Below, one piece after another: positions 17,591 through 51,835 of a DNA stretch of 64,000 nt. The stretch is from Candidatus Dojkabacteria bacterium. Its GTDB lineage: Bacteria > Patescibacteriota > Dojkabacteria > SC72. The notes beneath the pieces are model-generated. The model ran no database searches. It was not told the origin of the DNA and saw nothing but the letters and a program-made list of their open reading frames with translations. The stretch covers positions 315,685 to 379,684 of the forward strand of contig JACPFP010000003.1 in the NCBI GenBank assembly GCA_016182915.1, read 5' to 3'. The stretch's first letter is position 1. Each line of letters opens with the position of its first letter. A program made the translations under genes and the position numbers.

Positions 17591-18859
17591 CTACTTATTC
17601 TTTATAATTTTCCTCCCAAGAATTGGTTGAAGTACCTCAGGAATATTTAAACTTCCATCTTTGTTTTGAAATGTTTCAAGAATGGCTACCATAAGTCTAC
17701 TTGTCGCTAAACCTGATGCGTTTAACATATGTACATACTTATTCTCTCCCTCGCCAGTCTTGTACTTAATATTTCCTCTTCTTGCTTGATAATCTCTTAC
17801 ATTAGAGATGGAACTCACCTCATAGTATGTTTCAAGGAATGGCATCCAGACCTCAACATCGTATGTTTTAGCTGCTCCTGCCGCACAGTCGTCTGCAGCT
17901 AGTTGTGTAACTCTATAATGAAGACCTAGACCTTCAACAAGTCTAGTTGCTTTATTTAGCAGTTCTTCTAATGCGGCTTCTGATTGTTCAGGGGTTGTAT
18001 ATTGGAACATCTCAACCTTATTAAACTGATGCATTCTTAGAAGTCCTCTTTCATTTGTTCTATATCCACCGGCCTCTCTTCTATAACATGGAGTATACGC
18101 AAAGAGCTTTATTGGAAGTTTTTCCTCCTCTAATAGTTCATCTCTAAAAAGGTTCGCAAGAGCAGTCTCTGCTGTTGGAAGCAACATGTTTCCATCGCTA
18201 ACCCAGTATACATCCTCCTTAAACTTTGGAAGCTGTCCTGCGGTATACCCAGACTGCTCGGTTAGAAGGTGTGGAGGCATAATCATCTGATATCCATCTT
18301 TAATATGTTCTCCTATGAAGTAGTTAATAAGCGCCCATTCAAGCTGTGCTCCTATACCTCTATACATAACATTGTTTGATCCAGCAATCTTAGTTGCTCG
18401 ATCCATATCAATCATCCCTAGTCCTTCCCCAACTTCAAGGTGATCCTTAATCTTAAAATCAAAGATTGGCTTCTCACCAATCTCTCTAAGAACCCTGTTA
18501 TTTTCCTTTCCACCTCCAACAACATCATCATCGGGGATATTAGGTAATACTTCTAATTTTTCCTGTAACTCTTCATCTGCCTCCCTAACCTCTTCCTCTG
18601 CCTCCTTCACTTTACCTGAAAGGTCCTTAAGATCTTCTATAAGCTCTTTAAACTCCTTACTACCTTTTTCAACCTTTGCCATCTTCTCGTTGAACCCTTT
18701 CTGCTTTGCTCTAAGGGTTTCATACTCCTGTTGTTTCTCTTTCTTCTCTTTGTATTTTTCTATAATTTCATCTAAATCTAGATCATCTTTCTTCATTCTC
18801 TTAAGCAGAGCCTGTTCTACTTCCTTCTTATTTTCTACAATTCTTTTAATATCTAACAT
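17591..18859 (-). CDS. serS: Seryl-tRNA synthetase
   Basis: N-terminal coiled-coil arm, class II motifs (e.g. FRDELL, TPCYRREAG, GLATSRLMVAILE). Confidence 0.9.
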   Translation of the reverse strand: MLDIKRIVENKKEVEQALLKRMKKDDLDLDEIIEKYKEKKEKQQEYETLRAKQKGFNEKMAKVEKGSKEFKELIEDLKDLSGKVKEAEEEVREADEELQEKLEVLPNIPDDDVVGGGKENNRVLREIGEKPIFDFKIKDHLEVGEGLGMIDMDRATKIAGSNNVMYRGIGAQLEWALINYFIGEHIKDGYQMIMPPHLLTEQSGYTAGQLPKFKEDVYWVSDGNMLLPTAETALANLFRDELLEEEKLPIKLFAYTPCYRREAGGYRTNERGLLRMHQFNKVEMFQYTTPEQSEAALEELLNKATRLVEGLGLHYRVTQLAADDCAAGAAKTYDVEVWMPFLETYYEVSSISNVRDYQARRGNIKYKTGEGENKYVHMLNASGLATSRLMVAILETFQNKDGSLNIPEVLQPILGRKIIKNK

Positions 18860-19559: not shown

Positions 19560-20114
19560 CTACTTCAGTCCTAAATCTCCCTTTATCTCTTTCATAGCAT
19601 CAAGAACTAGTTGTATATGTTCATCGATATCCACATTTAACTCCATAGCGCCGTTAAAGATATCTTCCCTAACTACTCCTCTTGCGAAGGCCTTGTCCTT
19701 AAATCTCTTCTTGATTGATTTGAGTTCTACAGCTGAGAGTTGTTCAGGTCTAACAAGAGCAACCGCAACTATAAAGCCTGTGAGTTCGTCTGAGGCAAAT
19801 AGGGCTCTTGCCATATTGTCTTTTCTTGTACTTGAGTCATCTCTATGGGCATGTCCTTTTATAGCATCAATCATATCTTCTGTAACACCTTCCTTTCTCA
19901 AAATTTCATATCCCCATTCGGATGGGTGTTCACTTCCCATTTTCTCATAATCAAAGTCGTGTAGCAGACCAAGGGCTCCCCACTTCTCGACATCTTCATT
20001 ATACTTTTTTGCATATGCTCTCATTGCAGCTTCAACCGCAAGCATATGTTTTACTAAATTCTGATTCTTTGTATATTCGTTTACGAGTTCTAATGCTCTT
20101 TCTCTTGTAATCAT
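19560..20114 (-). CDS. HD-domain phosphohydrolase
   Basis: H...HD motif (LLHDFDY), additional His/Asp ligands (GHAHRDD). Confidence 0.65.
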   Translation of the reverse strand: MITRERALELVNEYTKNQNLVKHMLAVEAAMRAYAKKYNEDVEKWGALGLLHDFDYEKMGSEHPSEWGYEILRKEGVTEDMIDAIKGHAHRDDSSTRKDNMARALFASDELTGFIVAVALVRPEQLSAVELKSIKKRFKDKAFARGVVREDIFNGAMELNVDIDEHIQLVLDAMKEIKGDLGLK

Positions 20115-20166
20115 AATTAATAATATTGAAGTTAACTAGTATTGATTATATCACTTATATATAGAT

Positions 20167-20628
20167 TTACTTTTCATTTTTCAATAACAGATTGAAATCA
20201 AGAGAAGGTTTGTAATCAGAAATCCATGACCTTCTATCCCTTTTCTCAATCCACACAGGATTTGGTAACTTAACAACTTTTTCCAATCCAAATACAGTTA
20301 TATATCGGTTATGTCTGGTCTTTTGAAACATTCTAACTGCATGATCTTCACTTTCTAGTCCGACCTGTTCCCATATATCCAGAAGTATCTCTAATAAATC
20401 CTCTTTGCCTACCTCTATTTCATAGTACTCAACCCACTCTATTTTACCTACCCCGACAATAGGGCCTGAGGACTCTTTTATAAGGAAGGTATCTCCTGCT
20501 TTCATTTTATGAAATGGTGGAAGTCTTCGGGTTGAGAGTTTAATATCTACAGTCTTTTTTCCATTTATCATTAATCCAATATAGTCTCTTCCTCTATCTT
20601 TTCGATATATTCCTAACTGATATGACAT
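20167..20628 (-). CDS. ASCH (PUA-like) domain protein
   Basis: MINGKKTVDIKLSTRR matches the ASCH G-K-K-T-x-E/D-x-R signature. Confidence 0.45.
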   Translation of the reverse strand: MSYQLGIYRKDRGRDYIGLMINGKKTVDIKLSTRRLPPFHKMKAGDTFLIKESSGPIVGVGKIEWVEYYEIEVGKEDLLEILLDIWEQVGLESEDHAVRMFQKTRHNRYITVFGLEKVVKLPNPVWIEKRDRRSWISDYKPSLDFNLLLKNEK

Positions 20629-20652
20629 TAGAAAGTTAACCTCTAAATTAGT

Positions 20653-21459
20653 CTATCCCGCACTCGTATATCTTTTAAGAGAGTGATACCAGATTGCCTT
20701 AGCAAGGAAGAAGAACGCGAGTGAAATTACGACGGAAAGGACAGCGTATCTCCAGTCAAAGACCCCGCTTAATACCCTTGCAGGGACCGAACCTACAAAT
20801 GCAACGGGAAGGATTGTAAAGAAAACATACTTCATATTTCCCTGCCATATGTCTGAAGGAAACTTACCAACACCTGTAATCTGTTTTTTGATCTCTCTTA
20901 ATCCATTCTTCACCCTCACAAAATCAAAACTCGCAAATATCAATTCAAAACTAAACCAGATTATAAAAGCACTTAACATTGTAATTAGGAAGAGAAGAAC
21001 GAGAGAAAGTGTGAACTCCTGGTAGTGGTTAACAACATAGTATCCAATTAGTAGAACTCCGGAGATTGCAGACATTGCATCATCAACAAAAAATTCAGTG
21101 AAGGAAGCGCCAAAGATTGAAGAGACTGGCTTAAGCAGTATAAAATCGAACTCCCCTTTTAGAATTTTCTCTTCCAGTCTCCATAGGTTTATAGAGAAAA
21201 GAGACCAGCTCATATAGTTAATGGTATTAAAAATCCCTGCGAGCAGGTACATCTCATCTAAGCTCCAGCCGACAAAGGACTTAGAACCACCAATAACCGC
21301 ATTTATAAATATAACCTGAGTTACAACAAGAAACACACCTCTTAGTGATCTGGCAATAACTTCAATCCTATACGTTCCAGCTTTACTCAAGCTCTGCTTA
21401 AATATAGTTATCCAGATTGTACGGTAGTATTTGAATATACTAAATTCCTTCTGCTTCAT
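20653..21459 (-). CDS. ABC-2 family transporter permease (6 TM)
   Basis: About 265 aa, six hydrophobic helices, ABC-2/DUF990-like N-terminus; paired with paralogous permease. Confidence 0.55.
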   Translation of the reverse strand: MKQKEFSIFKYYRTIWITIFKQSLSKAGTYRIEVIARSLRGVFLVVTQVIFINAVIGGSKSFVGWSLDEMYLLAGIFNTINYMSWSLFSINLWRLEEKILKGEFDFILLKPVSSIFGASFTEFFVDDAMSAISGVLLIGYYVVNHYQEFTLSLVLLFLITMLSAFIIWFSFELIFASFDFVRVKNGLREIKKQITGVGKFPSDIWQGNMKYVFFTILPVAFVGSVPARVLSGVFDWRYAVLSVVISLAFFFLAKAIWYHSLKRYTSAG

Positions 21460-22258
21460 ATTTCTTCAATGCTAATCTATATAGTAATTTGTAGAAGATT
21501 GTAAGGGAGATAATCCAAAAAAGTGCAATGTAGAAGCCCTGGATAATTTCAAATTGGAATAGTTGGTTTGTTAGTATCTCAACTGGGAAGGAAAGAGTAT
21601 ATCTAAATGGCAGAACCTTAACTAAAATTACAGCCCATATAGGCATTACCATAATTGGTATGACCTCTCCTGAAAGGAAGGTAACTGTATTCTCATAAAA
21701 CGATCTAATCCCAAGAATCTGCTTTATGAAAAAAGCTATCAATGCAAAGGTGTTGCCAAGAAGGAAGTTAATTATAAAGCCAATAACAACGGCGGAAAGT
21801 GCGTAAAAAAGATTAAGGGATGAGGTATTAATAATAATCATATCCTTAAAAAATATGTATGTTACGACTAGAAAAGGAATCAAGATTATAAGTCGGAGGA
21901 ATTTTGATGCCATACTAATACCTAAAGCTTCTGAGAGGTAGTTGAACGGTTTAACTAGATACTTGGAGAATTCTCCATACATAATCTTGTTTGAAATATA
22001 CTGATCAGAGAAGTCCTTCGTAAACTTACTTACAATTGCAATTAAGAAGAAATATGTGACCATCTGTTCAACCGACAGTGCATTAGAACCGTTCCTTGCC
22101 ACATTCGCCCAAAGGACGGCAAGTATAAAAGGTTGAAATATATCTGCAAGAATCCAAGCTAGAATCTGATTTCTATACGTGAGTTCGGTGCTTAAAAAGA
22201 GTCTGAAGGTGGTAAAAGTTACTTTTATAAATTGTTTAGGATTTTGTACTAGCATCAT
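21440..22258 (-). CDS. ABC-2 family transporter permease (6 TM), paralog of downstream gene
   Basis: About 270 aa, six hydrophobic helices; overlaps next gene by 20 nt. Confidence 0.55.
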   Translation of the reverse strand: MMLVQNPKQFIKVTFTTFRLFLSTELTYRNQILAWILADIFQPFILAVLWANVARNGSNALSVEQMVTYFFLIAIVSKFTKDFSDQYISNKIMYGEFSKYLVKPFNYLSEALGISMASKFLRLIILIPFLVVTYIFFKDMIIINTSSLNLFYALSAVVIGFIINFLLGNTFALIAFFIKQILGIRSFYENTVTFLSGEVIPIMVMPIWAVILVKVLPFRYTLSFPVEILTNQLFQFEIIQGFYIALFWIISLTIFYKLLYRLALKKYEAEGI

Positions 22259-23129
22259 TTATTACATCATCAATAGTTTTTTCAGGGTAGAGGTATGTCT
22301 TTATCCCCACCTTTTCAGCAGCTCTTATATTTTTCTCTTCATCATCAAGATAGTATACCTGATTTGGTTCAACTATGAATTGATCCATAACTTTATTGAA
22401 GAATTTAGGATCTTTTTTAAGAAATCTCAGCTGACTTGAGAAGAAGTATTTAGTAATACCTGTCTTTTCTGTAAGGAACTTTTCTAAGTATTCCGCTCTA
22501 TACTTCTCTTGGTTACTACATATGCATACCTGAAAGATATTTCTATCTAAGTCTTTGACTCTATTCACAACCGAATCGTTAATTGAGAGATCCTCCTCAA
22601 TCCAGTATTTAACAAGTTCATCAACTGAACCCTGCCATCTCCAAAGTTTAAGGACCTTCTTAAGAACTTTTTTTAGATCCTTCTTTCCAACTAAACATTC
22701 AGAGAAGTCTCCTTTAAAGAATGGAAGCATATCTTCAACGTCAACCCCAATTCTTTCAGAGTATCTCTCACTGAAAAGTTTTTCCTCATTGAGAACAACT
22801 CCGTCCAAGTCTAAAAGGATTATTCTAATGTGAGCGTTTTTCTTTTTAAGAGTTTCGAAGCGTTCACTCTCGAGTTCCTTTAATTTCCACATGAATATCT
22901 TCTCTCTGTTCTTTGCACTTGGATAGTCAATAGCAAAGCTGAATGCCTGCTCTAAAAGTGCCCTTGGCTTATTCTTAGCTAACTTAATATACATAGAAAC
23001 CCTATTTATTCCTCCAAGTTTCTGCGCTAGTCTATAACCGTAATCCTGAAACTCCTGTGATACATATTTATGTCGTTCAATAATATCCTTCTGTATATTA
23101 CTTTTAAGTATCTCTTGTATGCTTTGCAT
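22236..23129 (-). CDS. HAD-superfamily hydrolase with about 110 aa N-terminal domain of unknown function
   Basis: HAD motif I ILLDLDGVVLN, motif IV-like YLDDEEKN. Confidence 0.6.
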   Translation of the reverse strand: MQSIQEILKSNIQKDIIERHKYVSQEFQDYGYRLAQKLGGINRVSMYIKLAKNKPRALLEQAFSFAIDYPSAKNREKIFMWKLKELESERFETLKKKNAHIRIILLDLDGVVLNEEKLFSERYSERIGVDVEDMLPFFKGDFSECLVGKKDLKKVLKKVLKLWRWQGSVDELVKYWIEEDLSINDSVVNRVKDLDRNIFQVCICSNQEKYRAEYLEKFLTEKTGITKYFFSSQLRFLKKDPKFFNKVMDQFIVEPNQVYYLDDEEKNIRAAEKVGIKTYLYPEKTIDDVINDASTKS

Positions 23130-23165: not shown

Positions 23166-25172
23166 CTACTTGTATAGACTGAACTTTCCTGTTGTTTCTT
23201 TAATTGTTTCTACATCGGCAAAGATCCCAAGACCTAGAATTTCAGAGTCCTTAAAAAGCATCTTAGCCGTTGTTTTAGAGATATCTGCATCGTTTTTAAT
23301 CTCCAGCATCTCTTTTGTATAGACTAGGTATTTGACCTCTTTCATCTCCTTTACTTTTTCGAATAGGGTATGGAGCTGGGCTTCATTTGCACTTAATGCA
23401 ACGATCGGATACTGGGAATTAGCAGGAATTTGGACACCATCTGAGAACTCGAAACTGTCAGTACTTGCAAACTGATCTTGATCAATTTGATTTCCCAGGG
23501 TAGCGCAGATATGTCCAACTGTATTGGTTACCTTCCAACCCTCCAGTGCGTTATTTAATACCACCACCATTTTCTTGGATGTATCCTGGACCTTATTTGT
23601 TTTCTGTTTCCCAATCAATTTCTCATTTCCTTCCAAGGCGTCTGTTCCATATATCTCCTTTTGGAGTTTTGTAACAGGAGCCGGTCTCATGAGCGGGAAG
23701 AAGATTACATCGTCAATGTACTCAGATTCTGTAAACAGCATCTGGAATCGTTCAATGCCTGGTCCTAAGCCCGTTGTAGGTGGCATACCATACTCCATTG
23801 TTTCAATGAACTCAATGTCCATTGGATGTGCGACATCGTTTTCACTAATTTTCTTTCCAAGGCTCTGGGCTTTGAATCTCTCAAAGAGTTCAACAGGATT
23901 ATTCAGCTCACTCCAATTGTCTCCTTGCTCAATACCGCCTATAAAGAGTTCAAACCTTTCTACATATTTAGGATTATCAGCCATCCTCTTCGCAAGTGGG
24001 GATATCTCTACGGGATGTCCGAATATTATCGTTGGTTGAATTAGTTGCTCTTCAACTTTCTCCTCAAATACAACTTTCATGCTCTCTCCAACATTATCTG
24101 GCTTTATACCTTCATACCCGATCTCGTCCAGTACTTTATGAGCTTCAGGGAGGGTATTTATTTTGTAGAAATCTATTCCTGCATACTTTTTAACAGCGTC
24201 AATCATCATGATTCTCTCCCATTTACCCATGAGATTGATTTCATGCCCACCAACCTTATACACATTCTTATTCATTACACTCTTTGCAATATGCTTGTAT
24301 AGATCTTCCGTGAGGTCCATGTTGTACTCATAGTTCTTGTACGCAGTCATTGTCTCAAGCATTTGGAATTCAGGATTATGTGTACGGTCTATACCTTCAT
24401 TTCTAAAGTATCCTGTCATATTGTATACGTTCTCGAAACCTGCTGTGATGAGTCTTTTAAGATATAGCTCATGTGCAATTGCAAGATAGAAGTCTGTACC
24501 AAGGGCATTCATATATGTACTAAACGGTCTTGCATTTGTTCCTCCGTAGAGAGGTTGTATCACTGGAGTTTTTATTTCAAGGAACCCTTTACTATTTAAG
24601 AACTCCCTAATCGCGAACAGTATTCTTGCTGAGTCTACAAACTTCCCCTTTTTGCTTGGGTCCATGATTAGGTCAAGATATCTCTGTCTGAACTTTGCCT
24701 CTTTGTCTTGAAGTCCCGCCCATTTATCTGGAAGAGGTCTAATTGATTTTGTAAGCATACGAAGGGTAACGGGCTGAACGGAGACCTCACCTCTCTGTGT
24801 TTTGGTAACGATACCTGTGGCTTCAACAATATCTCCAAGATCAAAGAGTTCGAGATCTGCAAATCCAATTGTTTGGCCTTTGACATCGGTTGGAGCTAAT
24901 ACATCGTCCTTAATGTATAGTTGAAGCTTTTCGGTTGGATCCTGAATATGTCCGAATACAATATGCCCGTGTTCACGAAAAGACATTAACCTCCCCGCAA
25001 CGGTAACACTCTGTCCTTCATACTTAGAGTAGTTTTGAATAATCTCTGCATTGGAAACTGATCTCAAGCTTCTTGATGGGTATGCATCAATTCCCATTGC
25101 TTTCATCTTCTCAACCTTCTCTATCCTGACATTTCTCTGTCCAATTAAGTCACTTCTCTGTGTGTTATCCAT
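23166..25172 (-). CDS. lysS: Lysyl-tRNA synthetase (class II) with C-terminal PTH2 (peptidyl-tRNA hydrolase 2)/DUF2000-like extension
   Basis: N-terminal OB anticodon-binding domain, class II motifs (GGTNARPF, GIERFQMLF...FFPLMRP); about 170 aa C-terminal extension with KMVVVLNNALEGWKVTNTVGHICATLG ... PIVALSANEAQLHTLFEKVKE ... ILGLGIFADVETIKETTGKFSLYK matching PTH2 signature blocks. Confidence 0.9.
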   Translation of the reverse strand: MDNTQRSDLIGQRNVRIEKVEKMKAMGIDAYPSRSLRSVSNAEIIQNYSKYEGQSVTVAGRLMSFREHGHIVFGHIQDPTEKLQLYIKDDVLAPTDVKGQTIGFADLELFDLGDIVEATGIVTKTQRGEVSVQPVTLRMLTKSIRPLPDKWAGLQDKEAKFRQRYLDLIMDPSKKGKFVDSARILFAIREFLNSKGFLEIKTPVIQPLYGGTNARPFSTYMNALGTDFYLAIAHELYLKRLITAGFENVYNMTGYFRNEGIDRTHNPEFQMLETMTAYKNYEYNMDLTEDLYKHIAKSVMNKNVYKVGGHEINLMGKWERIMMIDAVKKYAGIDFYKINTLPEAHKVLDEIGYEGIKPDNVGESMKVVFEEKVEEQLIQPTIIFGHPVEISPLAKRMADNPKYVERFELFIGGIEQGDNWSELNNPVELFERFKAQSLGKKISENDVAHPMDIEFIETMEYGMPPTTGLGPGIERFQMLFTESEYIDDVIFFPLMRPAPVTKLQKEIYGTDALEGNEKLIGKQKTNKVQDTSKKMVVVLNNALEGWKVTNTVGHICATLGNQIDQDQFASTDSFEFSDGVQIPANSQYPIVALSANEAQLHTLFEKVKEMKEVKYLVYTKEMLEIKNDADISKTTAKMLFKDSEILGLGIFADVETIKETTGKFSLYK

Positions 25173-25195: not shown

Positions 25196-25458
25196 ACAAA
25201 AACGCCCCTCATAAATATCCGTAAGTAGATACTTATGAAGGGTGTTATTAACACGGTACCACCTTCTTTCTCCAAACTATTTCATAGTTCAGACTCGATT
25301 AGGCTAATTCCGTTAGCTACTCGTTGGATTCTACTCTCTAATATCACTACTAGATTTCTTTCCACCACTTAGAGGTCTTAAACATCTTTTTAGAACTACC
25401 CTTTCTCACTGTACAGGGCTCACTTAAGTACATAGAAGTGTTTTCCTCGTCACTGTGT
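25196..25458 (-). promoter_or_regulatory. T-box riboswitch leader upstream of lysS (promoter, Stem I region, T-box sequence, terminator/antiterminator)
   Basis: Minus-strand extended -10 TGTGATATAAT (25465-25475); T-box consensus-like GAAGGUGGUACCGUG (25252-25266) immediately 5' of a 10-bp terminator hairpin CCCUUCAUAA...UUAUGAGGGG followed by CGUUUUU (25196-25242), about 25 nt upstream of lysS AUG. Confidence 0.65.
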
Positions 25459-25491
25459 TGGCTGATTATATCACAAATTACAATCCGACCT

Positions 25492-26472
25492 CTACTTTGC
25501 AATTATCTCCAGATTTCCAGCACCAAGATCTGCTTTTATTACAAACTGTGGATTGCCTGCTTTAGATCGATATGTTCCCTTTGAACCTAATCCACCATAC
25601 GACTGGGATCCCGCATCAGTAGTTACTACAAATTCACCAACCCCAACATTATATTCCACTTCAAAACTCACCTCTTTTGGTATTGTGATTGTCATCTTAC
25701 CAGCTCCTACATTTACATCTATTGGACAAACTATCTCATCGCCAAGATCAAGAGTTACTTCCCCAGCTCCAACATTCAAAGATATCGCCTCAATCAGTTT
25801 GCTGTTTAAAACGATATCTCCCTGTCCAGCTCCTAATTTCACATCATAACTACTAACTACATCTCCAAGCGTTGTAAAATCGAACTGGTTCTTGAAGTCA
25901 TAGAAGGGAAACATTCTTGAATATCTCTGCTTGCTCTGAGTGAAATCAATATTTAGAATCCCTTCCACCTGCTGTGCCTGCACCTCTGGTCTAAGAACAG
26001 CCTCAGGATATGCTCCTGTAACAAGGAGATACTCCTTCGATCCGGTATCGTCTATTGAAAACTTTGAGGCCCCAATATCAAAGGAATATTCAACTTTCTC
26101 AACTCCAACATAGCCAGAAGAACTGACATCAAAATCGTTGTTGATCTCCTTTACAATTACATTCCTCTGATCCTCAACCCATGTATAGAAGCTACCTTGT
26201 TTCTGCCAACTTCCTCCTACAACCAACATATATATAATTAACAGATCAACGAGTATATCTAAAAGAAGATTAAGTACCTTACCAAATGGAAATACTCCAC
26301 AGAGAATCTTAATTCCCCAAAGTACGATTAGAAGGGGCCAGAAGGTGGCAAAGAGTCTAAAAATATCTCCAAATGTGAAATAGTCAAAGTTTATGAGAAG
26401 AAAGAGTGTACCGATGAAGATGAGAGATATTGCACTTGAGATTCTTTCTAGCCCTTTACTATTTTTCTCCAT
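25492..26472 (-). CDS. LiaF-like membrane protein with C-terminal DUF4097/adhesin-like beta-repeat domain
   Basis: N-terminal TMs then repeated (L/V)G(A/V)G-x-h-T/E strands (LGAGQGDIVL, VGAGEVTLDL, VGAGKMTITI, VGVGEFVVTT, LGAGNLEIIA). Confidence 0.5.
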   Translation of the reverse strand: MEKNSKGLERISSAISLIFIGTLFLLINFDYFTFGDIFRLFATFWPLLIVLWGIKILCGVFPFGKVLNLLLDILVDLLIIYMLVVGGSWQKQGSFYTWVEDQRNVIVKEINNDFDVSSSGYVGVEKVEYSFDIGASKFSIDDTGSKEYLLVTGAYPEAVLRPEVQAQQVEGILNIDFTQSKQRYSRMFPFYDFKNQFDFTTLGDVVSSYDVKLGAGQGDIVLNSKLIEAISLNVGAGEVTLDLGDEIVCPIDVNVGAGKMTITIPKEVSFEVEYNVGVGEFVVTTDAGSQSYGGLGSKGTYRSKAGNPQFVIKADLGAGNLEIIAK

Positions 26473-26962
26473 CTTTATTTTTTACTAAAATTACGATTCC
26501 AAGTGTTATAACGATGAGAGGCCAGAGTTTTCCCAAATACCAGCCTAAATCAAAGAATCTTGTTAAACCGAAATTTGCAAAGGTAAGGTATGTACCGAAA
26601 AGAACAATGAAGATTCCAAACCAAACCCTTGAGTTACTTCTCTTAGCTATATCTTCTACCCCATTCGCCATACTCTTCATCTTGCTCTCTATCTCCTTGC
26701 TGTTTTTCTTCACAACGTTTTCAGTTGTAGTATCTTTTGCTCCTTCTTCAGGTATTACAACCCAAAGGATAAAATAGGCCAGAATCCCAACTCCTCCTGA
26801 GAGAACAATCAGAACAAATAGCAGTCTGATTATAGTTGAATCAACATTGAAATATTCTCCGAGTCCACCACATACTCCACCTATGACTCTGTCCGTTTTA
26901 GATCGGTATAGTGATTTAGTTTGAGAGACTTTGGAAGGTGTGCTTCCCTTTGTATTGGCCAT
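26459..26962 (-). CDS. PspC-domain (phage shock protein C-like) membrane protein
   Basis: RSKTDRVIGGVCGGLGEYFNVDSTIIRLLFVL PspC motif followed by TM helices. Confidence 0.7.
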   Translation of the reverse strand: MANTKGSTPSKVSQTKSLYRSKTDRVIGGVCGGLGEYFNVDSTIIRLLFVLIVLSGGVGILAYFILWVVIPEEGAKDTTTENVVKKNSKEIESKMKSMANGVEDIAKRSNSRVWFGIFIVLFGTYLTFANFGLTRFFDLGWYLGKLWPLIVITLGIVILVKNKDGEK

Positions 26963-27077: not shown

Positions 27078-28373
27078 ATGGAACTTGATCTGCTTTCTAA
27101 AATTACGGCACTATCTAAGAGAAGAGGAATACTCTTCCCAAATTCTGAAATATACGGTGGTATAGGGGGATTCTACGACTACGGTCCTGTTGGAGTTGAG
27201 ATGAAAAACAACCTCAAAAGAATGTGGTGGAAATATATGGTTGATGACAGAGACGATGTTGTAGGGATTGATGGAACAATTATCACCCACCCAAAGGTCT
27301 GGGAGGCATCGGGGCATATCACAGGTTTCGCAGATGAAATGGCTGAATGTAAAAAATGCCACCAGAGATTTAGACCTGAAGATATCGAAGGGAAATGCCC
27401 CAAATGTGGAGGAACTGATTTTTCCGAAGCGAAGAAATACAATATGCTTTTTAAAACTGAGGTCGGCGTAATCGAGGGAGAAACAACCCCAGCATACCTT
27501 AGAGGAGAGGCATGCCAAACTATATATCTTGATTTTAAAAATGTCGTAGATTCTTCGAGGGTTAAGGTTCCTTTTGGAATAGCACAGATTGGTAAGGCAT
27601 TTAGAAACGAAGTTACACCAAATAAGTTTACCTTTAGAACAAGAGAATTTGAGCAGTGGGATTTACAATTTTTCGTACACCCTTCCGACATGGGAAAGTG
27701 GTTTGAATACTGGAAGGAGCAAAGAATGTCCTTCTATAAAAACCTTTACAGAAAATCTGAGAACTTAAGGTTCTACCAACATCCTAAAGAAAAATTAGTT
27801 TTCTATGCAAAAGACGCTTTTGATATTGAATATCTTGCACCATGGGGATGGGCAGAAAATGAGGGGATTCACTGGAGAGGTGATTATGATTTAACACAGC
27901 ATAGTAAATTCTCTGGAAAAGACCTTTCATATACAGATCCAATTACAAATGAGAGATATATTCCACATATTGTTGAAACCTCTGGTGGTGTAGATAGAAC
28001 ATTCTTGTACCTCCTCTTCGATGCATATGAGGAAGAAACTCTTGCAAATGGAGAGCTCCGTACAGTACTAAAGATAAATCCTGAGATAGCAGCATATAAA
28101 GCAGCTGTCTTCCCACTTGTGGGAAACAAAGAAGAGATTACAGGGAAAGCACGAGAGATATATACAATGCTTAAGAAGGATATGAAAGTTATGTGGGATG
28201 ATAGAGGAAACATTGGTAAGAGGTATAGATATCAAGATGAAATTGGTACTCCAAAATGTATAACTATCGATTACCAGACATTGGAAGATGGAACGGTAAC
28301 GGTTAGAGATAGAGACACAATGGAGCAGGTAAGGGTCAAGGTTGAGGAACTAAAGGAAAGCTTAACAAAGTAA
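27078..28373 (+). CDS. glyQS: Glycyl-tRNA synthetase, alpha2 eukaryote/archaeal-like type
   Basis: N-terminal RRGILFPNSEIYGGIGGFYDYGPVG, Zn-ribbon insertion CKKCHQRF...CPKCGG, class II core and C-terminal anticodon-binding domain. Confidence 0.9.
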   Translation: MELDLLSKITALSKRRGILFPNSEIYGGIGGFYDYGPVGVEMKNNLKRMWWKYMVDDRDDVVGIDGTIITHPKVWEASGHITGFADEMAECKKCHQRFRPEDIEGKCPKCGGTDFSEAKKYNMLFKTEVGVIEGETTPAYLRGEACQTIYLDFKNVVDSSRVKVPFGIAQIGKAFRNEVTPNKFTFRTREFEQWDLQFFVHPSDMGKWFEYWKEQRMSFYKNLYRKSENLRFYQHPKEKLVFYAKDAFDIEYLAPWGWAENEGIHWRGDYDLTQHSKFSGKDLSYTDPITNERYIPHIVETSGGVDRTFLYLLFDAYEEETLANGELRTVLKINPEIAAYKAAVFPLVGNKEEITGKAREIYTMLKKDMKVMWDDRGNIGKRYRYQDEIGTPKCITIDYQTLEDGTVTVRDRDTMEQVRVKVEELKESLTK

Positions 28374-51518: not shown

Positions 51519-51835
51519 CGCACAAGTACCCCATAAGCCGAATTCTGTTTTCTGCAACTATCTATCTATGCGGTGTTAAATATCACCTTGCTTCAGACGG
51601 GGGTTACAAAGCATAGAGATATTACTATCCCTACCGGTAGTCTCTTACACTACCTTTTCACCCTTACCCTTACGGGCGGTATACTTTCTGTTGCCCTTTT
51701 ATCCAAGAGATTACTCCCTTCCGACTCACATCGGCATCTATCACGAAGTATTGTTCGTGACCCACATGAAGTCCGGACTTTCCTCTATAGCGACATATTA
51801 TCGCTACAGCAATTGCATAGGATACTTGTGCTGTA
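51508..51835 (-). ncRNA. rnpB: RNase P RNA (bacterial type A), rnpB
   Basis: Minus-strand GAGGAAAGUCCGGAC (P4 5' strand; + strand 51769-51785), ACAGAAAGUAUACCGCCCGUAAGGGUAAGGGUGAAAAGGUAGUGUAAGAGACUACC (P9-P12 consensus block), and ACAGAAUUCGGCUUAUGG (P4 3' strand; + strand 51533-51549) at correct spacing; P2 pairing GUAUCC/GGGUAC; TGgTATAAT promoter-like element just upstream. Confidence 0.8.

Follow-up and report, generated by a model that had tools for sequence, protein, structure and literature searches.

A T-box leader predicted to respond to tRNA-Lys upstream of lysS in a Candidatus Dojkabacteria genome

The lysS leader and its elements

A stretch of 64,000 nucleotides from a Candidatus Dojkabacteria genome (hereafter, the window) was analysed with regard to the non-coding leader that precedes lysS on the minus strand, for which an earlier sequence-only reading had proposed a T-box riboswitch controlling the gene. 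The leader is real, the elements described in that reading lie at their stated coordinates, and the gap between the stop codon of a LiaF-like open reading frame (ORF; 25492-25494) and the lysS ATG (25170-25172) measures 319 nucleotides (nt), in line with the approximately 320 nt previously given. The gene behind it (lysS, 23166-25172, minus strand, 668 aa) encodes a protein that scores 497 bits against the TIGR00499 lysS equivalog (cutoff 427.6), whose top PDB matches are all lysyl-tRNA synthetases (LysRS) and which carries the Pfam domains PF00152, PF01336 and PF09391; judged by these matches, the gene downstream of the leader is without doubt that of a class II LysRS.

It is considered highly probable that this leader is a transcriptional T-box riboswitch, specific for tRNA-Lys, which gates lysS. 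The elements to be discussed, all of them on the minus strand, are the following:

25475-25465: extended -10 promoter TGTGATATAAT (TGnTATAAT), from direct reading
25457-25366: full-length Stem I, from the Rfam alignment, constrained folds and pair counts on ten leaders
25457-25455 and 25368-25366: C-stem of the kink-turn (K-turn), CAC with GUG, followed by the bulge AGU and by GA (25451-25450) opposite AA (25370-25369)
25449-25445 and 25375-25371: stem below the specifier, CGAGG with CCUCU
25424-25420: AG bulge, AGUGA
25419-25415 and 25402-25398: distal helix, GCCCU with AGGGU, around the 12-nt distal loop GUACAGUGAGAA (25414-25403)
25379-25377: specifier AAG (Lys) followed by the purine A (25376), in a register conserved in the leaders and directly 5' of the 3' strand of the lower stem
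25364-25361 and 25328-25325: Stem II, UGGA with UCCA, from covariation in ten leaders
25360-25355 and 25336-25329: S-turn-like internal loop of Stem II, AAGAAA with GAGUAGAA, under an apical hairpin (25354-25337)
25323-25322 and 25312-25311: Stem IIA hairpin, CG with CG, loop AGUAGCUAA
25317-25313 and 25307-25303: IIB pseudoknot, loop bases GCUAA with UUAGC
25293-25271: Stem III hairpin UCUGAACUAU-GAA-AUAGUUUGGA, 10 bp, from the Rfam alignment and direct reading
25266-25237: T-box sequence and antiterminator, AGAAGGUGGUACCGUG, a structure reproduced by folding alone
25266-25262 and 25241-25237: helix A1, GAAGG with CCUUC
25261-25255: 7-nt bulge, UGGUACC
25254-25250 and 25246-25242: helix A2, GUGUU with AACAC
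25242-25205: intrinsic terminator with a 16-bp stem (CCCUUCAUAAGUAUCU with GGAUAUUUAUGAGGGG), followed by CG and by UUUUU (25202-25198), from a terminator scan

These elements were compared with their counterparts at lysS loci gathered over a LysRS identity of ~23-81%, regardless of whether a leader was present. Ten T-box-like full leaders were obtained (the window and loci L002, L003, L004, L005, L009, L045, L046, L047 and L056), all from genomes or assemblies of the Dojkabacteria lineage and all with a common layout; the leader of an eleventh locus, L001, is partial and ends at the contig end.

At the 3' end of the leader, the T-box element previously pointed out was found as GAAGGUGGUACCGUG at 25266-25252, and the leader copy is the one exact GGTGGTACCG of the window. 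When positions 25270-25233 are folded alone, the antiterminator is obtained at -7.1 kcal/mol, with a 5-bp A1, the 7-nt UGGUACC bulge and a 5-bp A2. The bulge is the same in nine of the ten leaders, A1 is invariant and A2 contains three covarying pairs. Being of the UGGN type with N = U, the bulge fits a tRNA with the discriminator A73, which is usual in bacterial tRNA-Lys.

The intrinsic terminator announced by the sequence-only reading was recovered as a hairpin followed by CGUUUUU and lying 25 nt ahead of the ATG, although its stem comprises 16 bp and not the 10 that had been claimed. It folds at -22.0 kcal/mol (z = -6.55; 0 of 200 shuffled sequences fold as well), and a terminator of 15-18 bp followed by a U-tract is found in all ten leaders, with 98.6% of its cells paired and six pairs showing compensatory changes. 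CCCUUC (25242-25237) is common to both helices, as it comprises the last base of A2 plus the whole 3' strand of A1, and folding indeed gives the antiterminator and the terminator as the mutually exclusive alternatives that had been anticipated. Their energies agree with the means of the Lys class in the T-box database TBDB (antiterminator -7.4 +/- 2.2 and terminator -21.0 +/- 5.9 kcal/mol; PMC7778990 supplement). Since the terminator is far stabler than the antiterminator, termination is the default state, and as the stretch from the U-tract to the ATG is too short to accommodate a promoter, expression of lysS requires antitermination and readthrough.

At the opposite end of the leader, the extended -10 promoter was present as claimed. 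No good -35 accompanies it, which is why a simple -35/-10 scan misses it. Transcription would likely start at ~25458, about 7 nt past the extended -10. TGnTATAAT occurs in seven of the ten orthologous leaders, and the -10 element ends 5-12 nt ahead of the K-turn stem in nine.

Stem I follows with its modules in place. Over the ten leaders, the paired cells amount to 89% in the C-stem, 91% in the stem below the specifier and 91% in the distal helix, each with compensatory changes. The K-turn set (C-stem, 3-nt bulge, GA and 5-bp stem) is present in nine leaders, its C-stem covarying between GC and AU. The arrangement of AG bulge, 5-bp distal helix and distal loop is kept in seven leaders, with one compensatory pair, and is predicted to be the platform for the tRNA elbow, even though its sequence departs from the AGAGA/GGUGNRA-type consensus.

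A Stem I specifier loop offering AAA or AAG had been put forward as the feature to look for, and AAG was found at 25379-25377, followed by A. Across the ten leaders a Lys codon always occupies the specifier position, being AAG in nine and AAA or AAG in L009, depending on register. The purine stands directly against the stem after the triplet in eight leaders, while an extra A intervenes in L047 and a U takes its place in L009 under the AAG reading. Of the long Stem I folds, all eight leave the triplet unpaired together with the base after it (with one extra nucleotide in L003 and L009); AAG and this base are predicted to lie in an asymmetric loop of 4-5 nt opposite 1-3 nt, directly under a Watson-Crick helix. 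Lys specifiers in TBDB are mostly AAA (148, versus 22 AAG, among 23,535 T-boxes; PMC7778990 supplement), unlike that of the window. Use of both codons in the large genes of the window is near equal (AAA 366, AAG 321).

Because a purine follows AAG, the triplet displaced by one base (AGA or AGG) is consistent with arginine in nine of the ten leaders, and AGA is a known specifier with 167 TBDB entries (PMC7778990 supplement); a T-box read in the +1 frame would answer to tRNA-Arg rather than to tRNA-Lys. This is regarded as very improbable. The regulated gene is lysS, and the family rule, by which the codon stands directly before the conserved purine that precedes the stem, returns AAG in eight of the ten leaders and AAA in L009. 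This latter leader breaks the arginine frame (AGU or AAG) and keeps the lysine one (AAA or AAG), and the third base of AGA would be the very purine that is expected to stack and not to pair.

Downstream of the lysine specifier, Stem II provides the clearest covariation of the whole element, as each of its five pairs is represented by two to four Watson-Crick types and 98% of cells are paired in the ten leaders. The signature AAGAAA ... GUAGAA, followed by five bases and CG, is found in all ten, and so is the invariant CG that opens Stem IIA. The IIA loop is complementary to downstream sequence over 3-5 bp in every leader, with the partner 3-6 nt away (up to 12 nt if certain alternative pairings are considered), even though the pairing sequences differ (in the window GCUAA/UUAGC, elsewhere ACUUC/GAAGU, AUGC/GCAU and further combinations). 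The best matches average 4.1 bp, compared with 3.18 +/- 0.20 bp when the downstream sequence is shuffled, and none of 5000 shuffles reaches 4.1. Stem III is variable in relatives: one or more hairpins stand between the IIB strand and the T-box sequence in the window, L002, L005, L045 and L009, and Stem III is absent from L003, L004, L046 and L047.

Conservation and detection of the element

Conservation of both conformers was evaluated on a gap-free module alignment of the leaders, with the helices anchored on invariant motifs. The antiterminator conformer shows 94.5% of cells paired and 14 of 27 pairs changed on both sides, and the terminator conformer 95.6% and 17 of 32; neither is matched by any of 500 shuffles, and sliding by 1-3 columns reduces pairing to 26-47% and 31-47%, respectively. 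Compensatory changes are found in the C-stem, the stem below the specifier, the distal helix, A2 and the terminator.

As the structure had been derived from these same sequences, two structure-independent tests were carried out, namely RNAalifold and a covariance model. RNAalifold received no structural constraint and saw five relatives only, aligned with plain MAFFT and not including the window; it returned 42 pairs, 16 of them compensatory, and reproduced the K-turn stem, the stem below the specifier, the distal helix, Stem II and the antiterminator. The covariance model, R1, was built from that same alignment, which comprises L002, L003, L004, L045 and L046. R1 finds the window leader end to end (model positions 1-241) with 161.8 bits and an E-value of ~4e-46. 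Applied to 382 kb of other lysS loci, it finds L005 (155.9 bits), L047 (121.9), L001 (71.1, partial), L009 (61.2) and L056 (44.6), which are exactly the remaining T-box-positive loci, and none of the T-box-negative ones.

Specificity was contrasted on metagenome contigs searched with the pattern GAAGGTGGTACCGN{6,20}CCCTTC, which returned at least 120 loci; 100 of them, unrelated T-boxes with an identical antiterminator core, score at most 47.5 bits with R1. Among the pattern matches listed, many derive from human-gut assemblies and represent unrelated T-boxes sharing the A1 helix; none has a LysRS gene downstream, and no new lysS leaders were obtained from them. A further R1 match inside the lysS coding region of the window (23784-23950, minus strand; 19.5 bits, rough E = 2.6e-04) is probably spurious, there being no T-box core at that place.

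The Rfam T-box family, RF00230, matches positions 25462-25235 over the full model (positions 1-219) with 47.4 bits, corresponding to an E-value of 2e-09 for the leader alone and of 2.7e-07 for the whole window with 4227 families; the remaining weak Rfam matches within the leader are noise. Seven of the nine full-length relatives score 31.6-83.9 bits, all below gathering, and L005 and L009 are undetected at E<=0.1. The sequence-only reading had held that an Rfam score below threshold, such as the leader indeed receives, would refute a T-box, a yardstick that proves too strict, because the relatives also score below gathering and yet covariation and the leave-one-out model show them to be real T-boxes. 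For comparison, TBDB admitted INFERNAL scores of at least 15 on its own models (PMC7778990 supplement). In view of the sub-gathering score, the defining T-box features were tested one by one, as described above. Altogether, the Rfam, covariation and R1 results indicate that the element is homologous to T-boxes generally and belongs to a distinct, lineage-specific subfamily. Departures from consensus (AGUGA, the unmatched CGUUA box, the lack of an evident S-turn and the K-turn of the window) probably explain the low score.

The sub-gathering score would also be compatible with a T-box likeness confined to the GGUGGUACC core, the leader then being either a T-box that acts on translation or a plain attenuator having nothing to do with tRNA. 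The 10-mer core with up to two mismatches is moreover no rarity in the window, with 21 matches where 13.5 are expected. We consider such a restricted likeness highly unlikely. Homology, with covariation, spans Stem I, Stem II, IIA/B and the antiterminator, detection works both ways (Rfam finds the leaders, and the model built from the leaders finds unrelated T-boxes), and what follows in all ten leaders is a hairpin of 15-18 bp with a U-tract, not a structure sequestering the ribosome-binding site.

Several observations nevertheless weigh against a fully typical, functional T-box. With Rfam, the leader attains roughly half of the 93 bits set for gathering, the AG bulge is AGUGA and not the usual AGAGA, and the specifier loop lacks an evident AGUA/GAA S-turn, the motif by which the codon is usually presented; the Rfam alignment deletes AGUA in the window (a conclusion drawn from that alignment, predicted folds and sequence). 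The CGUUA box of the Rfam consensus IIA/B region, presumably the one known as the 'F-box', is unmatched in the window. Folded on its own, Stem I shows no gain in stability over shuffled sequence (z = +1.1), and no tRNA-Lys gene was found in the window or in the 15 further loci scanned. Finally, the K-turn of the window is degenerate, its 3' strand reading AA versus GA in the eight other K-turn leaders, and the stem below the specifier opens with a C.U mismatch where five of those eight have A-U; the copy of the window may thus be weaker than those of its relatives.

Taken further, this last point would imply a decaying or weakened T-box, in which the terminator still attenuates transcription and tRNA-dependent switching is impaired by the degenerate K-turn; the window also scores lower with Rfam than its closest relatives (83.9 bits for L045 and 69.6 for L002). 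The AA and the C.U mismatch are the main reason for keeping a small probability for such a state, which is considered unlikely. All other modules are intact, and R1 gives the window the highest score of all leaders outside the training set. Moreover, lysS lies behind a terminator of -22 kcal/mol with no alternative promoter, so that a switch no longer working would deprive the cell of LysRS. Natural K-turns with A.A at 2b.2n also exist and fold. A functional, tRNA-Lys-specific T-box is hence preferred, and the central proposal of the sequence-only reading is supported by the lysine specifier, the covariation and the leave-one-out model.

Regarding distribution, more distant lysS genes (Chloroflexota, other groups of the Candidate Phyla Radiation (CPR) and several Dojkabacteria lineages) showed no T-box leader, the distant LysRS relatives checked being P0013, P0036, P0037, P0049, P0050, P0052, P0053 and P0065. 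The gap before lysS is just 14-62 nt at the distant loci L050, L051, L053/54 and L178-L180, and no T-box was found in the 246-nt gap of L055 or the 144-nt gap of L057. In a rough neighbour-joining tree of LysRS, eight T-box-bearing genes fall in one clade, with L056 and L009 as isolated T-box-positive tips among T-box-negative Dojkabacteria branches; an ancestral leader followed by later losses appears the likeliest history for this pattern. At T-box-negative Dojkabacteria loci, a tRNA-Gly(GCC) gene is seen upstream of lysS on the opposite strand (L048:2310-2384 and L049:2197-2271, minus strand), L049 having an extra insertion of ~110 nt relative to L048.

Proposed mechanism and relation to known T-boxes

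The elements with their conservation and covariation, the exclusive helices with their energies and the identity of the gene are observed here, and they can be read in terms of the T-box family, by analogy with which tRNA binding, discrimination between charged and uncharged tRNA and readthrough would be expected. Transcription would start ~7 nt after the extended -10, and the nascent leader would fold into Stem I (with AAG displayed), Stem II, the IIA/B pseudoknot and Stem III, allowing the tRNA-Lys anticodon to pair with AAG. An uncharged tRNA, with its ACCA-3' end free, would pair through that end with UGGU of the bulge and stabilise the otherwise weak antiterminator, and RNA polymerase would continue into lysS and perhaps also into the five genes behind it on the same strand. 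If tRNA-Lys is charged, the stabler terminator would form and transcription would end 25 nt ahead of the ATG.

The module order of the leader is the same as in class I (transcriptional) T-boxes of Firmicutes (RF00230, as in B. subtilis tyrS and glyQS), comprising the K-turn, Stem I with specifier and purine, AG bulge and distal loop, Stem II with its GAA/AGUA S-turn, IIA/B, Stem III and the T-box sequence with its UGGN bulge, and the exclusive antiterminator and terminator are likewise common to both. Unlike those T-boxes, the element of the window has a CPR host, a sub-gathering Rfam score, an AGUGA bulge, no evident specifier S-turn, an unmatched CGUUA box and a degenerate K-turn. The subfamily would appear to have a pared-down specifier loop without evident S-turn, together with natural variants in which the terminator is retained but Stem I is ultrashort (L047) or Stem III is lacking (L003, L004, L046 and L047).

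One of these variants, L047:2301-2461 (plus strand), has a Stem I that consists of no more than a K-turn, a 4-bp stem and the 7-nt loop CUAAGGA, which holds AAG; it is devoid of AG bulge, distal loop and Stem III, and retains Stem II, IIA/B, the UGGUACC bulge and the terminator with its U-tract. Ultrashort Stem I T-boxes are found at actinobacterial ileS, where they belong to class II and are translational; they resemble L047 in Stem I and differ in this from the leader of the window, whose Stem I is full-length. Because its terminator with U-tract is retained, L047 looks like a transcriptional, not translational, T-box that has dispensed with the usual tRNA-elbow platform. L009:2597-2932 (plus strand) is divergent in another respect, with ~60 nt inserted after UGGU in the region of the antiterminator bulge and A2 (UGGUUUUUGCACCGGUG...), and it possesses the canonical AGAGA bulge and a GCAUGGUGAAA distal loop. 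Such variants, with Stem I ultrashort, Stem III missing or the antiterminator enlarged by an insertion, could serve as comparative material for T-box structure.

T-box control of LysRS genes had been described as relatively uncommon by the sequence-only reading, and the literature agrees. LysRS T-boxes are known at lysK of B. cereus and B. thuringiensis, lysS2 of C. beijerinckii and lysS of S. thermophilum, that is, in 4 species among 891 genomes, and in each case another LysRS that is not so regulated is present as well, from which it was proposed that a housekeeping LysRS may be ill-suited to T-box control (Foy et al. 2010, PMC2916919). Among synthetase genes, lysS is the rarest target of T-boxes, and the Lys class, the rarest one, has 170 of the 23,535 entries of TBDB (PMC7778990 supplement). 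The published cases and that of the window have in common a T-box with a lysine specifier on a LysRS gene; the LysRS regulated in the window differs from the published ones in having a C-terminal domain resembling peptidyl-tRNA hydrolase 2 (PTH2), described below.

The leader of the window may control the only LysRS of its genome. It is tentatively proposed, at somewhat less than even chance, that in part of the Dojkabacteria the T-box is the ancestral and only control on a single housekeeping LysRS, fused to the PTH2-like domain. If true, this would overturn the published rule that T-box-regulated LysRS are always auxiliary paralogues, and a small CPR genome is a natural place for testing the idea of a T-box on a housekeeping LysRS.

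T-boxes have been reported in Firmicutes, Actinobacteria, Chloroflexi, Deinococcus-Thermus and two deltaproteobacteria (Wels et al. 2008, PMC2494555), and gene regulation in CPR bacteria is largely unknown (PMC11665869). Our literature search found no report of a T-box from CPR, prior mention elsewhere remaining possible. The type of element is not itself new, T-boxes being among the best-understood RNA switches; the interest lies in the host phylum, in the rarity both of T-boxes on lysS and of those with AAG, and in the chance that the sole LysRS of a reduced genome is controlled in this way, the structural variants of the relatives adding to it. If confirmed, T-box regulation would be extended to CPR, which fits the placement of CPR next to Chloroflexota within Terrabacteria. 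As the window and its nine full-length relatives all score below gathering, pipelines based on that cutoff miss such T-boxes, and published taxonomic distributions may be too narrow.

Host, fused domain and neighbouring genes

The host is a CPR bacterium (Candidatus Dojkabacteria), neither a Firmicute nor a mollicute. Its LysRS is 100% identical to a Candidatus Dojkabacteria protein, the nearest genomic loci are Dojkabacteria/WS6 assemblies, with a few labelled Saccharibacteria, and the G+C content is ~37%. The Rfam scan of the whole window at gathering thresholds returned solely a class A RNase P RNA and one tRNA. Since the RNase P RNA of Firmicutes is of class B, this finding fits a CPR host, and together with the LysRS identity and the nearest loci it corrects the specifics of the lineage that had been deduced earlier from the T-box (Firmicutes-like regulation in a minimal low-GC genome).

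Further features of the window are:

51519-51828, minus strand: class A bacterial RNase P RNA, 169.6 bits, compact (310 nt versus the 367 positions of the model)
23169-23576, minus strand: DUF2000 (PF09391), the C-terminal 136 aa of LysRS, from Pfam and the predicted fold
17591-18859, minus strand: serS, with a leader of ~125 nt behind a TGCTATATAAT promoter-like site
27078-28373, plus strand: glyS, dimeric-type, with 115 nt upstream only

In the RNase P RNA, several consensus stretches are deleted relative to the model.

The DUF2000 domain of LysRS matches by profile the PDB entry 2GAX (Atu0240; E = 3.4e-12), and its alignment-backed model (pLDDT 95.2) superposes on that structure with a TM of 0.83. 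A phmmer search of PDB with the domain returned nothing, and single-sequence structure prediction was unusable (pLDDT 47.8). After 2GAX, the significant fold matches (E <= 0.01) belong only to the PTH2 family (Bit1 1Q7S, MJ0051 2ZV3, 1XTY, 3ERJ and 1WN2). Fusion of LysRS to a PTH2-like domain suggests an added activity of tRNA-ester hydrolysis or editing. The LysRS-DUF2000 fusion is widespread across this lineage; at the N-terminus of other Dojkabacteria LysRS, B3_4 domains, HD domains or both are found.

Five genes lie 3' of lysS on the same strand (19560-23129, minus), namely those for a HAD hydrolase and for two ABC-2 permeases plus two small ORFs, their spacing varying from overlaps to gaps of 52 nt. 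No terminator-like site was seen anywhere in 19560-23129, between lysS and these five genes, and the order lysS, HAD, ABC-2, ABC-2 is also present in L045. The T-box leader may therefore gate an operon of lysS and the downstream genes.

No T-box was found at serS or glyS of the window, either by the Rfam scan or by a search for the core sequence. Glycyl enzyme genes in Firmicutes are commonly under T-box control. Counterparts of serS in Firmicutes are likewise commonly T-box-regulated (Wels et al. 2008, PMC2494555). Neither a lysine riboswitch nor any other further RNA family was found within the window at E<=0.01 (Rfam, 4227 families).

Upstream, the leader adjoins a PspC-domain gene and a LiaF-like gene (25492-26962, minus strand), which encode membrane proteins of envelope-stress type. 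The same PspC/LiaF-like neighbours are present in L045; in other relatives the neighbours differ, with the leader still attached to lysS.

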